The translations under genes and the position numbers were made by a program. Under the pieces are notes generated by a model. That model was not told the DNA's origin, did not search any database, and saw only the letters and a list, made by a program, of their open reading frames with translations. Below, in pieces: positions 39,539-46,400 of a stretch of 64,000 nucleotides of DNA. The stretch comes from Desulfobacterales bacterium (GTDB lineage Bacteria; Desulfobacterota; Desulfobacteria; Desulfobacterales; UBA5616). Position 1 is the stretch's first letter; each line of letters starts with the position of its first letter. The stretch is from the NCBI GenBank assembly GCA_046483495.1, contig JAWODC010000092.1, positions 32,001 to 96,000 of the forward strand, read 5' to 3'.

Positions 39539-39835
39539 ATTCAAGCATGAAATCGGGTTCGGGCGGTGCTTGTTTCGGTATGTGTTTCACACGGAACCAT
39601 CGGATCCCGATTGAGTCGATACAGTCGAACCGTGTGTTCTGAGTTGACAGGAACGGCTCCGGACTGATAAAAATCAGTTTAACTTTCTTTCGGTGTTTGT
39701 GGCGAGGTGGTAAGGGCGTTCACCGGCCATGATCCTATCCGCTCTGCCGTCGAAATGAAAGCCGAGAGATGAATGGGCTATTTGACAAGCAATGACGTCG
39801 ATCCATACACAACACGTGGAGAAAGGGGGCGTAGT

Positions 39836-40294
39836 ATGATTCGAAAGTGGGTTATGCTGGTGGTTGTCGCCGGCTTTTTTGCCGCGACGGCAATTTTTGC
39901 AGGAACTTCGGTGCCGGATGTCGTGGAAATGAAAAACCCGGCGTATGAGAAGCACACCCGGGGAATTGCGTCGTTTACCCATAAAAAACATACCGAAACG
40001 TATGGGATCGGCTGCGGGGAGTGTCACCATGACGATAGCGGAGAGCCCCTAACCGATCTGGAGTATGGGGATGAAGTCAAAAACTGCATTGAATGCCACA
40101 GCATCCCCGGTCAACCGCCCAGGGGCAAGGATGCCCCCAAGCTGACCGAGGCACAGAAGCTCGAATACCATGCCGAGGCCATTCACGAAAATTGCAGGGA
40201 CTGCCACAGAAAATATAACAAGGAAAAGGGCTTGAAAAGAAAAGACCCGGGATATGCTCCCACCACTTGCAGTCAATGCCATCCCAAAGAATAG
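39836..40294 (+). CDS. Tetraheme cytochrome c3 (class III)
   Basis: Signal peptide; four CxxCH motifs (CGECH, CIECH, CRDCH, CSQCH); FTHKKH. Confidence 0.92.
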   Translation: MIRKWVMLVVVAGFFAATAIFAGTSVPDVVEMKNPAYEKHTRGIASFTHKKHTETYGIGCGECHHDDSGEPLTDLEYGDEVKNCIECHSIPGQPPRGKDAPKLTEAQKLEYHAEAIHENCRDCHRKYNKEKGLKRKDPGYAPTTCSQCHPKE

Positions 40295-40295
40295 T

Positions 40296-40441
40296 TAGTG
40301 TTCATCCAGAAATAGGCAGTTTCGCGTGAGTTCAAGGCGGGCGCAAGATCGAAACCGCAGGAATCGTGTGCTATTTTGAGGATTTCGATTTTGCGTCCAA
40401 CGCAGAAATCGCGTGAAAGGGCCATTTATGGATGGACACTG
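40296..40441 (-). repeat. ~146-bp palindromic element, subfamily B
   Basis: TIRs TAGTGTTCATCCAGAAAT / ATTTATGGATGGACACTG; near-identical to 48367-48513. Confidence 0.92.
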
Positions 40442-40478
40442 TTAGATAAAACAGGTGAACCGGCATCGGGCAGCGTTT

Positions 40479-41318
40479 TCAGTTTTCCCTGATGCCGGTC
40501 ATTTTGAATCCGACCGCCGCCCATCCTTTTTCATCTTCCAGGAAAATTCTTTCAAACCGTTCCGGCCTGTAAACCGATACAATATCCGCCATTTCTTTAC
40601 ATTTGATGCCTGAAAAGACCAAAAAAGACCCGGGCCATGAAATAGCCGGCAACAGAGGAGCCAGCTGAATAATGCCGGTGAACCGAAGATTGGCGGCAAT
40701 CAGGCAAAAGCGGGTGTCCAGACATTCAGCGGTTTTTTCTCGAACATCGAGGGCGCCGGTTAAATGATTCAGCTCGATGTTATGTCGAGCCTCGGCTACG
40801 GCGTTCGGATCGATGTCGATGCCCAACCCGTTGCAGCCCGTCAGTTTAGCAGCTGCAAGAATCAGAATGCCGGAGCCGGTTCCGACATCCAGGCAGGTGG
40901 GGTACTGAAAGGATGTCCTCAATGCGCATGCGATACGGTCGATGGCCCTGACCGCCAGGCGGGTCGAGGGATGCCGTCCGGTGCCGAAAGCGGCGCCGGT
41001 CATCAGGTTGATAACGACTTCACCGTTGTTCAGCACATAGGTTCTTTCAGGCGGTTTGACGATCACGCGTTTCGACATGCGGACCGGTTTGAGAATCGAC
41101 GGTTCGATAAACGTGCAGCCGTATTCATTCGTATAGGAAAGGGTCTCCTTTTTAACCAATTCATGGATGATTCTTCTGGACTGCTTCCGTGTGATCGAAA
41201 ATCGGCAATGGATTCGGTGTTCCAGGGCGTGGGGCGTAATTTTGCGGTTGGACGATGAAAACATTTCAAGGATTCCGGATTCAAACCCACCGGAATCTTC
41301 ATAGTGCCGATAATTCAT
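40479..41318 (-). CDS. PrmA-like SAM-dependent protein methyltransferase with atypical winged-helix-like N-terminus
   Basis: GAAFGTGRHPST, LDVGTGSGIL, DIDP.AV, AANL and FSGI motifs; start overlaps the dsrN stop. Confidence 0.85.
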   Translation of the reverse strand: MNYRHYEDSGGFESGILEMFSSSNRKITPHALEHRIHCRFSITRKQSRRIIHELVKKETLSYTNEYGCTFIEPSILKPVRMSKRVIVKPPERTYVLNNGEVVINLMTGAAFGTGRHPSTRLAVRAIDRIACALRTSFQYPTCLDVGTGSGILILAAAKLTGCNGLGIDIDPNAVAEARHNIELNHLTGALDVREKTAECLDTRFCLIAANLRFTGIIQLAPLLPAISWPGSFLVFSGIKCKEMADIVSVYRPERFERIFLEDEKGWAAVGFKMTGIREN

Positions 41319-42726
41319 GGGAGGACTTTTTCTTTTTCATAAAAGAAAGGGCATTCGAAACCAGGGAGGATGCCCAAGCGGGCAGGCCCAGAGTGTGAAT
41401 ATGGGTGTATGCGGCAAGGACGTTTTTTATGCATACACCGTCTCTACCGTACAAAAAACCGGCGCCTCGTTGCATGTGAAAAACCAGTTGATCCTCTGTC
41501 CCGAACCATTTCAGGACATTGGAATAATGAAATTCATGTCCCTTAAATACCGTTCCCACTTCCAGGAACGGATTCGGTTTGTCCACGCAGGCAACCGTAT
41601 AGCCCAGTCCCTGAGGCTTTTCGGAAATGCCGAAAACGGCAGGCAGAACGCCGGCCATGGGATACGTCGAATCGTTTATCACAAGCGATTCTCCAAGATA
41701 CATAAGTCCACCGCACTCGGCGTAAACGGGAAGTCCGTTTTTCACCATTGCCTTAAGCCGGCGTTTAAAAGCCGTGCCCGCTGAAAGCTTTTGGGCATGG
41801 GTTTCCGGAAAACCGCCCCCGATGTAAAGTCCATCCACGTCAGGCAGGTTGTCGTCGCTCAGAGGACTGATGAAAATGACAGAAGCGCCTGCTGTTTTCA
41901 GGGCGTCGATATTTTCCGGGTAATAAAACTGAAATGCCGCGTCTTTGAAAATGCCGATGCAGGGCCGCGCTTTTTCGACTTGCAGCGATGGTTCGGCGGT
42001 GCAGCCGGAAATGGCTGCTGTGTGCGGCGGCCGTGCCGAATGCCGTCCGGCGATGTCGACAACAGCGTCCAAATCGATGTGCTGTTCGGCAATCAAGGCT
42101 GTCTTCTCGACAGCTTCTTTCGCCCATTCATGCTCAGGCGTCGGGACCAGCCCCATGTGCCGTTCGGGAAAAATTTTATCCGGAATTTTCGGAACGGCGC
42201 CGATAACGGGAATGCCGCAGTGATGGTTGATTGTCTGGGTCAATATCCGTTCGTGTCGTGATCCGGCAACTCGGTTCAATACAATGCCGCCAAAGGCCAC
42301 GTTCGGGTCGAAGTGCATGAGCCCCAATATCATGGCTGCCATGGTTCGGGTGGTTTTCGTGCAATCAACCGCCAGAATCACCGGGGCTTGCAGCAGCTTG
42401 GCCAATTCAGCGGTGCTGGTTTTGCCGTGCAGGTCGATGCCGTCGAAAAGTCCCCGGTTTCCTTCAATGACGGCGATATCGCCGGGAGACGTGCGGGAAG
42501 AAAAAGACCTCAGAATTAGATCTTGCGATAGGATGAAGGTGTCCAGATTGAAGCACGGCCGACCGGCGGCGTATGCCAGCCAGCCTGCATCAATATAATC
42601 CGGTCCTTTTTTAAACGGAACGATTGAGAAATGTTTCTTTTTCAGGGCCGCGATCAATCCGATCGAAAGGATGGTTTTTCCTGACCCGCCGCCAAGAGCG
42701 GAAACAATGAATCTTCCGTATGTCAT
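41299..42726 (-). CDS. dsrN: Cobyrinate a,c-diamide synthase-like siroheme amidase DsrN
   Basis: GGSGKT, KKGPDYID, IEGNRGLFDG, ERHMGL, AECGG and GHEFHYS motifs; directly downstream of dsrD. Confidence 0.85.
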   Translation of the reverse strand: MTYGRFIVSALGGGSGKTILSIGLIAALKKKHFSIVPFKKGPDYIDAGWLAYAAGRPCFNLDTFILSQDLILRSFSSRTSPGDIAVIEGNRGLFDGIDLHGKTSTAELAKLLQAPVILAVDCTKTTRTMAAMILGLMHFDPNVAFGGIVLNRVAGSRHERILTQTINHHCGIPVIGAVPKIPDKIFPERHMGLVPTPEHEWAKEAVEKTALIAEQHIDLDAVVDIAGRHSARPPHTAAISGCTAEPSLQVEKARPCIGIFKDAAFQFYYPENIDALKTAGASVIFISPLSDDNLPDVDGLYIGGGFPETHAQKLSAGTAFKRRLKAMVKNGLPVYAECGGLMYLGESLVINDSTYPMAGVLPAVFGISEKPQGLGYTVACVDKPNPFLEVGTVFKGHEFHYSNVLKWFGTEDQLVFHMQRGAGFLYGRDGVCIKNVLAAYTHIHTLGLPAWASSLVSNALSFMKKKKSSHELSAL

Positions 42727-42786
42727 ACGCGTCTCGGCATGCGTCGGCAATATTCGGGTGAAGCTGAACCGGCCCTGCGGCGTTGA

Positions 42787-43029
42787 TTACTTCTCTTCGT
42801 GTTCGGCTGCAGCTTGTTTGCCTTTTCCGGAAAGACCGTACATGGAGGTGCTGCCGCTTGACCAATATTCGAGCACACCGTCCTGCACCAGTTGATTGAC
42901 TACTTTTTTGGCGTCCCTGGGTTTGGTTTCCAGGATTTTTGCCAGATCATTGAAATAAAATTTTGATTTCGTTTTAAGCTTCTTTGTCAGTTCGGTAACG
43001 ATTTTTTCTTTCGCCTCTTCGTATTCCAT
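42787..43029 (-). CDS. dsrD: Dissimilatory sulfite reductase-associated protein DsrD
   Basis: KSKFYFND and LEYWSSGSTSMYGL motifs. Confidence 0.96.
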   Translation of the reverse strand: MEYEEAKEKIVTELTKKLKTKSKFYFNDLAKILETKPRDAKKVVNQLVQDGVLEYWSSGSTSMYGLSGKGKQAAAEHEEK

Positions 43030-43097: not shown

Positions 43098-44243
43098 TTA
43101 GAATTTGAATTGGGATGTTTGGCGCCAGGTATAGTATGCCGGATCACGGAAATCGTCGATCAGGTGGTGCGTAAAATCCAGTTCGCATGTTTGGAAGAAT
43201 CTTTCCCATCCGATTCTTTCCGCCCAATCCCCCAGCCTCTCGTATTTCCTGCCGTCGGCGGCATAGGCGTCTACGATCCGCTTGATGGTATCGGTCATGG
43301 TCGGCCAGCGCGGCATCTCATTTGGAATAAACGCCACGACAACCTTTGAGAATTTGGGGGTAGTGATTCGGTTGGATACTTTTCCGCCAACCATCAGAAC
43401 GATGCCGTCGCCTTCCCTGTCCGAAAGCGGCATCGAGGGGCACATGGTGTAGCAGTTTCCGCAGAACATGCATCGGTCATTATTGACTGCCACGCTCTTT
43501 ACCTCTTTATCACCAACCTTCACCTTGGCCGGTTTAATGGCGGCGGTGGGGCAGGCGGCAATGGCCAGCGGAATTTCACACATTTTGTCCAGGTATTCAT
43601 GGTCCAGCATGGGCGGCTTCCGGTGATACCCCAGAATAGCGATGTCGGAGCAATGAACCGCGCCGCACATGTTCAGACAGCAGGCCATGGATACGCGAAC
43701 GGGTGCCGGCATTCTGTGGTTTTTGAAATCATCGAACAGTACGTCCAATGTCGCTTTTACCGTACCCGAGGCGTCTGTTGCCGGGGTGTGGCAGTGAATC
43801 CAGCCCTGGGTGTGCACGATGTTGCTTATTCCGGCACCGGTTCCACCGATCGGAAATTTGAAGCTGCCCCCGTCGAATTTTCGGCTTTCCAGATCTTTGA
43901 CCAACGGATCCAACTTCTCCTTACTGTCCACCATAAACTCGATATTGTTACGGGTGGTGAAGCGCATGTGGCCGCCGCAGTGCTTTTCGGCGATTTCGCA
44001 GATCTCACGGATCATGGTGGTGCTCATGATGCGGGCGCCGCCGCAGCGAACCGTATACACTTCATCACCGGTTTCGGAAACATGAACCAGAACGCCGGGC
44101 TTTAGAATTTCATGGTACAGCCATTTACCCTTGTTTTTGGCGATGACCGGAGGGTAAAACGCGTCGTATTTTTTCGGGCCGATATCGGTGATCCGGTTTT
44201 CCATGGGTTTGTCCGGATTGTAACCTGAAGAAATAAATGCCAT
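43098..44243 (-). CDS. dsrB: Dissimilatory sulfite reductase beta subunit
   Basis: [32 protein letters not shown] and CMFCGNC motifs. Confidence 0.98.
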
Positions 44244-44256
44244 GATTATCCCCCTC

Positions 44257-45573
44257 CTATCTCTGATGGTGTTTTCTATATTCGTTGATGTCGCGTTCCC
44301 AGCCGCCTTCGACTTCGTCTTCCTTCCAGAAGATGTACGGATTGTGACGGGGTTCCTGCACCATTTGCGGCACCGGATCCACACCCATCATCTCGAGCAG
44401 CTTCTGCAGACCCTGGCGTTTCATCAGTTCGCCGAGACGTTCACGGTTTTTGCCTTCTTCCATCCACCAATCCCAGATGGGTTCGATGACATTTTCCTTG
44501 ATTTCCGTATAGGGCTCTTCGACTTTTATGAACGGGACGATCAATGATCCCATCTGGGCACCGTCCAGAATCGGGGCCTTGGCGCCGGCGAAAATGGAGA
44601 CGCCGCGGTCATTTCCAATTCTCAGGGCCCTGGGCATGACGTTGATGCAGTGCATGCAGCGTGTGCATTCCTTGTTGTCGATGACGAGTTTTCCGTTTTC
44701 CATCGCCATGCATTGGGTGGGGCATAAGGCGATGACTTCTTTCTGAATATCGAAGGGACCCCAGTCGCGGCCTGAATGGGCGCCGGCATTGGGAGGCAAT
44801 TCGCCGCCGATATAGGCCTGAACCGCTTCCTGGTCAATCCGGATTTCATCTCTCCAGGTGCCGATGAAGGACAAGTCGGCGCGGGCGATGGATGCTACGC
44901 AGCAGTTGGGGCAGCCGTCGAACTTGAATTTGAACTTGTAGGGGAAGGCCGGCCGGTGAAGCTCGTCCTGGTACTCCTGGGTCAGGTCATAGCAGATCGC
45001 CTGGGTGTCGTAGCAGGAAAATTCACAGCGTGAATCGCCGATGCAGTCCGCGGGGGTTCTGAGGTTCGAACCCGATCCGCCAAGGTCCTGCCCCAAATTG
45101 TGCGTCAGTTCGAAGAAGACTTCCTCCAGTTGCGGCGTTGTCGTTCCAAGAAAAATGATATCGCCTGTCGATCCATGCATATTGGTGATGCCGCTTCCTC
45201 TCAAGTCCCACAAATCACAAATCTTTTTTAAGTATTCAGACGTATAATATTTACCGCCGGGTTGTGCCACACGCATGGTATGAAAGTGGGCGACACCCGG
45301 GAATTGCTGGGGCTGGTCGCAGTAGCGGCCGATAACGCCGCCGCCATAACCGAACACGCCGACGATGCCGCCGTGCTTCCAGTGGGTGGTGCCGTCGGAG
45401 TAAGACAATTCGAGAATGCCCAAGAGATCTTCCACGACATCTGCGGGAATTTGAAATTCAATGCCTTCTTCATTCTTCGCCCTTTTTTCCGCCTGTTGTT
45501 TCAGGTCTGAAACAAAACTCGGCCATGGCCCAGACTCGAGCTGGTCCAACAAAGGGGTTTTATGCTTTGCCAT
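44257..45573 (-). CDS. dsrA: Dissimilatory sulfite reductase alpha subunit
   Basis: [24 protein letters not shown]...GCPNCC siroheme motif, CTRCMHC. Confidence 0.98.
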
Positions 45574-45740: not shown

Positions 45741-45769
45741 AATATAAAATGATTATTATATCTTGTCAA
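45741..45769 (-). promoter_or_regulatory. Sigma70 promoter of the dsr operon
   Basis: Minus strand TTGACA-17 nt-TATATT. Confidence 0.75.
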
Positions 45770-45848: not shown

Positions 45849-46400
45849 TTATTTTTGCAGCAATGTCCGGTTCTTCTGCGGCGGATTCAGAGCAAGTTCT
45901 TTAAATCCCAATTCCCTGCATACGGCAATGGTCGTGCTGAAATTCTCACGGCTGACGTGGCCTTTCGGCTCTGCAATGAACAGTGTGCCGCCGGGTTTCA
46001 ATGCATCGGCAATCTGTCTGAAAAAATGCACCCGGTCGGGAACTTCATGCACCATGTGAATGGCGGCCACCAAATCGACCGTCCCATATACATCTTCCAA
46101 ACCCATGTGGCCCTGTTTTGCGACCCTCAAGTCCATTCGGCTTAAAAGCCCGGCCTTTCGAGCTCTTTTTCGTAATGTGGAAATCATCTTATCCTGAACA
46201 TCGACAGCTATGATTTTTCCCAAAGGCCCCGTCATGCGGGCCAGGGGAAGGGTAAAAAATCCCATCCCGCATCCCGGCTCAAGAATCAGCATGCCTTTTT
46301 CGACAAAAGGTCCCAGCAGCTTATCCGGATGCTCGAACAATTTTCTTAAAGGGTTCAACAGAACATATCCCATCCAGAAGGGGCAGACAAACGGTTGCAT
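45849..46400 (-). CDS. Class I SAM-dependent methyltransferase
   Basis: CPFW..L.NPLR, LEPGCGMG, AVDVQ and LKPGG motifs. Confidence 0.88.
   Translation of the reverse strand: MQPFVCPFWMGYVLLNPLRKLFEHPDKLLGPFVEKGMLILEPGCGMGFFTLPLARMTGPLGKIIAVDVQDKMISTLRKRARKAGLLSRMDLRVAKQGHMGLEDVYGTVDLVAAIHMVHEVPDRVHFFRQIADALKPGGTLFIAEPKGHVSRENFSTTIAVCRELGFKELALNPPQKNRTLLQK

Follow-up and report, generated by a model that had tools for sequence, protein, structure and literature searches.

What does a methyltransferase of the PrmA type do at the end of a dsr operon? The question is raised by a gene (P0001; 40479..41318, minus strand) in a stretch of 64,000 nucleotides from a Desulfobacterales bacterium (contig JAWODC010000092.1 of assembly GCA_046483495.1, positions 32,001 to 96,000; the whole stretch is called the window here). 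The gene encodes a protein of 279 amino acids (aa) and is the last in the same-strand order dsrA, dsrB, dsrD, dsrN, methyltransferase, after which comes a convergent cytochrome c3 gene. A first-pass annotation of the sequence had reported that the gene overlaps the dsrN stop by 20 nt; the 20 nt shared by the methyltransferase start and the dsrN end (41299-41318) and the position of dsrA, dsrB, dsrD and dsrN upstream on the same strand were confirmed. The protein (AlphaFold2 model with a mean predicted local distance difference test score, pLDDT, of 88.6) is composed of an N-terminal winged-helix domain (aa 8-75; 41094..41297, minus strand; wing hairpin aa 60-73) and a linker with a seven-strand S-adenosylmethionine (SAM)-dependent catalytic domain of the PrmA type (aa 76-272; 40503..41093, minus strand; FGxGxH, DxGTGSG and ANLR motifs). 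By family profiles the N-terminal domain is a homologue of DsrD, and we propose that the enzyme carries out Dsr-directed protein methylation, i.e., that it would dock on DsrAB and methylate amines on DsrAB or on a bound partner such as DsrC, a proposal whose chances we regard as evenly balanced.

The PrmA-type motifs that the first-pass annotation had read in the C-terminus are present (AFGTGRHPST and DVGTGSG), PrmA structures are the top Foldseek matches of the methyltransferase AlphaFold model, and the PrmA structure 3GRZ matches the catalytic domain plus linker with a TM score of 0.88 by target, a root-mean-square deviation of 2.4 Å and a profile E-value of 8e-34. FGxGxH and DxGxGSG are kept in 135-136 of the 138 family members, and the SAM-binding and active-site motifs in 133-136 of them, so the family looks catalytically intact. 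The N-terminus had been described as unlike the L11-recognition domain of PrmA, and so it is: the PF06325 match is restricted to aa 76-272 (profile positions 105-294 of 296), and two structure models agree on the order helix-strand-helix-helix-hairpin, which is a winged helix and not a PrmA domain. The TIGR00406 match begins at profile position 103 of 288, positions 1-102 being missing, and scores 101.4 bits, below the equivalog cut-off of 183.15. A separate canonical prmA, for which the first-pass annotation had suggested looking, is present on another contig (C81; profile positions 13-294, 217.6 bits with TIGR00406), and 45 of 61 Desulfobacterales genomes encode a PrmA that exceeds the cut-off. 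The dsr-linked methyltransferase is therefore a PrmA paralogue and not the L11 enzyme. Databases do name the family members L11 methyltransferase, and by fold the N-terminus matches DsrD no more clearly than it does other winged helices, both of which would suit an enzyme that duplicates L11 methylation, or a mere passenger, with a generic winged-helix N-terminus; but the score of 101 against a cut-off of 183, the missing profile positions 1-102, the canonical PrmA in the same genome and the reciprocal DsrD matches of the N-terminus described below have already largely refuted this explanation, and we consider it very improbable.

The genome has yet another PrmA-like gene, a third paralogue whose N-terminus is again non-canonical, though of a different kind (L002:1480-2325; C34:62109-62951 in the genome under study). 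A CBS-domain gene and a deacetylase-like open reading frame (ORF) precede it; the paralogue occurs in 21 of 121 phylum genomes, and may be a second retargeted methyltransferase; its neighbors are presumably acuB and acuC, the CBS domain alone having been tested. A plasmid search gave generic PrmA-level matches only among the 8 of 41 records listed.

To what, then, is the N-terminal domain related? The first-pass annotation had aligned it by eye with the window's DsrD. The 17-residue alignment has four identities, and single-sequence BLAST against the window's DsrD gave one 12-aa match in a different register with an E-value of 0.034; we rejected such matches as evidence because they are near chance, and the DsrD link therefore rests on family profiles. 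When a profile of 15 N-terminal sequences of the family (A2) was used in a blind search over 301 genomes of the phylum, 27 matches were obtained, i.e., nine family members and 18 others, and 17 of these 18 are DsrD or genes in the dsrD position. Twelve of them are genes of about 80 aa with a YTYFGG-type wing motif at the dsrD position (E-values 1.8e-8 to 6.5e-6; ten between dsrB and dsrN, one after dsrB and one before dsrN), five match PF08679 (DsrD) above cut-off, and the one remaining match is an ATPase fusion with a winged helix of generic type. The order-wide A2 search also gave one weak GntR match (E-value 6e-4). In the reciprocal search of 61 genomes of the order with the YTYFGG profile, all nine matches were N-termini of the methyltransferase family. 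By hhalign the family N-terminus aligned with the YTYFGG type at 96.5% (E-value 9e-10, 64 columns) and with canonical DsrD at 63%, and the YTYFGG type aligned with canonical DsrD at 93.4%; the mean identities for the same three pairs are 23%, 15% and 19%, respectively. We conclude from these profiles that the N-terminal domain is a true DsrD relative at the family level, where the DsrD-specific homology is found, the window's copy alone going undetected. The kinship claimed from the by-eye alignment thus stands through the family and the quoted match itself does not; the profile-profile comparison with DsrD held for the YTYFGG type, a divergent DsrD form of other lineages, and fell short for the type of the window's own DsrD.

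The first-pass annotation had also warned that the match may be a generic winged helix, and this is true of the fold but not of the profiles, which are specific in both directions (17 of 18 blind, nine of nine reciprocal). In Foldseek, DsrD (1ucr) ranked second for the N-terminal domain with an E-value of 6.6e-3, and no match was found at an E-value of 0.001 or below; with the VIA-align tie described below, discrimination of DsrD by structure only was rejected. An ESM Atlas structure search with aa 4-80 returned the protein's own family in rows 1-3 and then DsrD-named clusters in four of seven rows (TM score 0.66-0.76); the ESM Atlas feature search gave DUF7059 only, at 0.75-0.76, which is under the trust level. 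Within the domain, Y62 and G67 of the wing hairpin are invariant in 120 homologues, the wing motif common to DsrD is the most conserved stretch, and conserved basic residues are found at positions 34, 44, 45 and 48. No PF08679 match was found for P0001, in which the YWSSGSTT motif is missing. Among the six-frame ORFs of its own genome searched with the family profile, DsrD is the top non-self match, below significance (E-values 0.47 and 0.066).

The YTYFGG-type DsrD is an observation in its own right. Genomes named as Desulfobaccales, and related ones, have it in the place of dsrD (L127, L129-L138, L143; e.g., L127:1468-1710, minus strand). It has 6,360 database matches and is mostly annotated as hypothetical; it lies under the Pfam DsrD cut-off, with weak matches in 7 of the 12. 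Surveys based on PF08679 may score such organisms as dsrD-negative, which matters where dsrD is used as a marker. An orphan second DsrD-like gene (L144:2969-3226, G005:C54; PF08679 35 bits) was seen off the dsr-operon contig with a divergent wing motif, and in one family outside the order dsrD is located upstream of dsrA (dsrD-A-B order, L221-L223), dsrN being next in L222 and L223.

Is the association with dsr conserved? Of 201 genomes of the order, 143 encode the domain, 138 of them as a full-length fusion, and outside the order the fusion was present in one of 290 sampled genomes. Upstream of the 143 copies are dsrN in 40, ykgJ-c5 in 61, mltG in three, a contig end in two and other genes in 37, so that the notion that the gene always follows dsrN was rejected (40/143). 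In a family tree of 138 rows built by a quick method, from which five short ORFs were left out, the dsrN context is scattered and needs 11 changes, at least two of which are required by strongly supported branches; because of this the dsrN context, judged from the tree, is either ancestral or recurrent. The synteny of the dsr link raised in the first-pass annotation is accordingly conserved, being dsrN-adjacent in 40 of 143 genomes and recurring over the family tree. The partner in the most frequent context, c5, is an unannotated protein of about 120 aa with no Pfam match, usually encoded behind a YkgJ-like CxxCxxCC gene and present in 50 of 301 phylum genomes (e.g., L154:4801-5166, L233-L238 and, in the genome under study, C17:36472-36891). 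Outside the order, where 18 loci of 39 matches were examined, c5 is near dsrAB (about 5 kb each side) in 12 loci from five families, and in L237 and L238 a ykgJ-c5-methyltransferase series is located upstream of dsrABDN. Both main contexts, dsrN and ykgJ-c5, therefore point to the Dsr system at the level of gene order, and c5 is a candidate for an unrecognised dsr accessory gene. A third context, mltG-methyltransferase-nagZ, was seen in L010, L013, L015 and L188, the L188 copy being split into ORFs of 138 and 116 aa.

Among 148 near-complete genomes, the gene is present in 112 of the 140 with dsrD and in none of the eight without it, seven of which also lack dsrB. Its absence from 28 of the 140 and from G071 led us to reject the idea of an essential dsr gene; the methyltransferase gene is dispensable, since G071 has dsrABDN without it. 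In G146 (L149, G146:C1), a dsrN-like gene, the methyltransferase and a cytochrome c3 gene are located about 183 kb from dsrD, and in this layout the methyltransferase therefore stayed with dsrN rather than with dsrAB.

These contexts feed two other explanations. The DsrD-derived winged helix might have been re-used for binding of nucleic acid or the ribosome, with a translation component as the methylated substrate and no relation to sulfite reduction. This would fit the conserved basic residues (34, 44, 45, 48), the GntR and Z-alpha domains among the top matches, the non-specific DNA binding of DsrD, which is the only kind of DNA binding given for it in the accessible text of PMC8794893, and the commonest context, since yidC-jag-mnmE precedes the methyltransferase context in 22-23 of 50 loci inspected and the ykgJ-c5 pair is usually behind yidC-jag-mnmE in the order. 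It sits poorly with the wing motif common to DsrD as the most conserved N-terminal stretch, with the recurring dsrN adjacency and with the dsr linkage of c5 in other lineages, and we think it improbable. Alternatively, the enzyme may belong to the Dsr system and act on an accessory protein reached without DsrAB, such as DsrD (lysine-rich, perhaps through winged-helix pairing), DsrN, c5 or the YkgJ-like protein. The position behind ykgJ-c5 in 61 of 143 genomes, the G146 copy behind a dsrN-like gene far from dsrD, and the 16% lysine content of canonical DsrD speak for it; a DsrD-derived domain, however, would most simply retain the partner of DsrD, the DsrAB prediction passed weakly, and many genomes beyond the order carry c5 but not the methyltransferase. 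We rate this as unlikely, if the least unlikely of the alternatives.

For the proposed docking on DsrAB itself, a complex of DsrA, DsrB and aa 4-80 was predicted with a score of 0.57 (runs 0.16, 0.57 and 0.66), the best of three controls scoring 0.00, with a contact agreement between runs of at least 64% and a partner pLDDT of at least 72. In the calibration, which fits a three-chain job of DsrA, DsrB and partner only roughly, 116 of 157 solved complexes and 2 of 215 mismatches attained the mark, but only 18 of the 157, together with both mismatches, did so with a score of 0.60 or below. The complex prediction with DsrAB proposed in the first-pass annotation thus gave weak support, set well apart from the controls but in a range where both mismatches also pass. 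When the DsrD profile was searched against solved structures, only entries of DsrD alone were found (1ucr, 1wq2), and therefore the prediction is unlikely to echo a solved complex of DsrAB with DsrD. Contact of the N-terminal domain with DsrAB is weakly supported by this model, a modest gain given the prior from homology.

Such docking would also suit a protein that acts on DsrAB chiefly by binding, i.e., a competitor or a modulator sensing SAM or S-adenosylhomocysteine (SAH) at the DsrD site, in which case methyl transfer would come second. According to the accessible text of PMC8794893, DsrD binds DsrAB with a KD of 350-540 nM and activates it allosterically, being itself unmodified, which together with the weak predicted docking favors the binding explanation. 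The catalytic motifs kept in nearly all members are against it, as is the RNA evidence: in metatranscriptome contigs (four sets from three studies) dsrAB are well covered and the methyltransferase faintly and in one run, although such contigs are unable to rank genes or to demonstrate a single transcript. We hold this explanation to be slightly less probable than that of a translation substrate.

We return to the proposal of a methyltransferase directed to DsrAB. In PrmA, as described in the accessible text of PMC6465133 and bioRxiv 10.1101/773556, the choice of substrate falls to the N-terminal domain, and the flexibility of the linker allows the catalytic domain to reach and methylate several amines. 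Here the L11-recognition domain is replaced by a DsrD-related winged helix, and the enzyme is therefore most simply viewed as redirected to DsrAB or to some protein that docks there. In the predicted scheme the DsrD-related domain would dock on DsrAB, and the catalytic domain of the docked enzyme would methylate amines on DsrAB or on a bound partner such as DsrC; by analogy to PrmA, the modification might be a multi-site lysine or N-terminal methylation. A speculative candidate site is the DsrA N-terminus, which reads A-K-H-K once Met is removed and is similar to the A-K-A/G/K start given for the E. coli PrmA substrate in Table 1 of PMC6465133. Its role would likely be a dispensable one, tuning or stabilising, because about a fifth of dsrD-positive genomes are without the gene. 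Mono-, di- and trimethylated peptides or methyl-lysines have been recorded for ApsA, ApsB and DsrC of D. vulgaris, and this shows that the pathway does bear such marks; the accessible text of PMC3125180 names neither an enzyme nor a function for them. We did not adopt the view that the fusion explains these Desulfovibrio methylations, since it was found in one of 290 genomes outside the order.

Several observations weigh against this reading. The best solved-structure match of A2 by sequence is the GntR-type AraR (E-value 7e-5), and matches of individual members in Pfam are to GntR in 3 of 15 and, weakly, to DsrD in 2 of 15. The 120-sequence YTYFGG profile fails to detect the window's own copy, which is divergent, and therefore its kinship to DsrD holds by way of the family; the DsrD that the host encodes is of the canonical type, more distant from the fusion domain than the YTYFGG type, and YTYFGG proteins owe the name DsrD to position and homology only. 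With VIA-align, DsrD had a Z-score of 8.4 where the highest was 9.3 and 56 chains reached 8 or more, and by fold alone the modelled N-terminus is not distinguishable from generic winged helices. As to context, 103 of the 143 copies do not adjoin dsrN, many being behind yidC-jag-mnmE, and in the same-genus genome G071 dsrABDN adjoins the cytochrome gene and the methyltransferase is absent between them. The co-absence with dsrD is confounded, since four dsr-less genomes that were checked are also without the third PrmA paralogue and related genomes are not independent. That this enzyme methylates lysines of DsrAB or DsrC is our inference, and another enzyme is probably responsible for the methylations in Desulfovibrio because the fusion is nearly restricted to one order.

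The fusion shares with PrmA (PF06325, TIGR00406; 2NXE, 3CJT, 3GRZ) the catalytic domain and linker, the FGxGxH, DxGTGSG, AN and SGI motifs, and the two-domain layout; unlike PrmA, it has a winged helix in place of the L11-recognition domain, a sub-equivalog score and the family-specific residues R120, C172 and R212, coexists with a canonical prmA and is linked to dsr genes. With DsrD (PF08679; 1UCR, 1WQ2) it shares winged-helix topology and size (about 70-80 aa), profile homology (strongest to the YTYFGG type) and operon membership; unlike DsrD, the domain is fused to an enzyme, is without the YWSSGSTT motif and the lysine-rich stretch, falls under the Pfam cut-off, and is not a stand-alone product encoded after dsrB, being fused in 138 of 143 cases while a separate dsrD holds that position. 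The DsrB-DsrD protein of Bilophila is the only DsrD fusion mentioned in the accessible text of PMC8794893. EftM and the rickettsial OmpB methyltransferases (class I protein lysine methyltransferases) likewise recognise a folded substrate body and then methylate lysine, whereas their description mentions neither a DsrD domain nor a link to respiration, a distinction that is drawn from descriptions only (accessible text of bioRxiv 10.1101/773556). Strictly, the fusion is a member of neither PrmA nor DsrD, and from its sequence it is predicted to work like PrmA with a DsrD-type address.

The remaining features of the locus are as follows. The sulfite reductase genes dsrA (44257..45573, minus strand) and dsrB (43098..44243, minus strand) match TIGR02064 and TIGR02066, respectively, above cut-off; dsrD (42787..43029, minus strand) is of the canonical YWSSGST type (PF08679, E-value 1.7e-28), and dsrN (41299..42750, minus strand) encodes a CobB-type amidase according to CobB-type models. 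The convergent class III cytochrome c (cytochrome c3) gene (39773..40294, plus strand; PF02085) bounds the operon. Between it and the methyltransferase stop, positions 40297-40478 had notable RNA-contig cover in three runs and may be a repeat or terminator region. A sigma-70-like site upstream of dsrA (TTGACA-17-TATATT, 11/12; 45741..45769, minus strand) is a consensus match only, and in the promoter and terminator scan of the window the five sigma-70-like sites found are at chance level (5.2 expected). Just upstream of the dsrA promoter region is a second, unrelated class I methyltransferase gene (183 aa, Methyltransf_31/11 type; 45849-46400, minus strand), for which a conserved link to the dsr locus was not seen in the relatives' loci compared.

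We found no description of a DsrD-PrmA fusion in the literature searched, where subscription papers and supplements could mention it; in the accessible text of the dsr surveys PMC10504309 and PMC10591310 the word "methyltransferase" occurs 0 times, and the fusion is not described there or in that of PMC11406059. For an order of sulfate reducers, the family, which was found in 143 of 201 genomes sampled and whose members currently carry the erroneous label of L11 methyltransferase, provides a specific and testable hypothesis on an enzyme and its substrate. Taken as a whole, the proposal that most Desulfobacterales encode a DsrAB-directed methyltransferase, in which a DsrD of a divergent lineage on PrmA would dock at the DsrD site and mark DsrAB or DsrC, with ykgJ-c5 as an accessory dsr module, is tentative and somewhat less probable than the docking and methylation alone. 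If it is true, the enzyme would be the first identified writer of a post-translational modification of the sulfate-reduction pathway, and the ykgJ-c5 pair and the methyltransferase would form an unrecognised accessory dsr module; DsrD would have found a second use in protein targeting, and this could be of help in finding where on DsrAB it binds.

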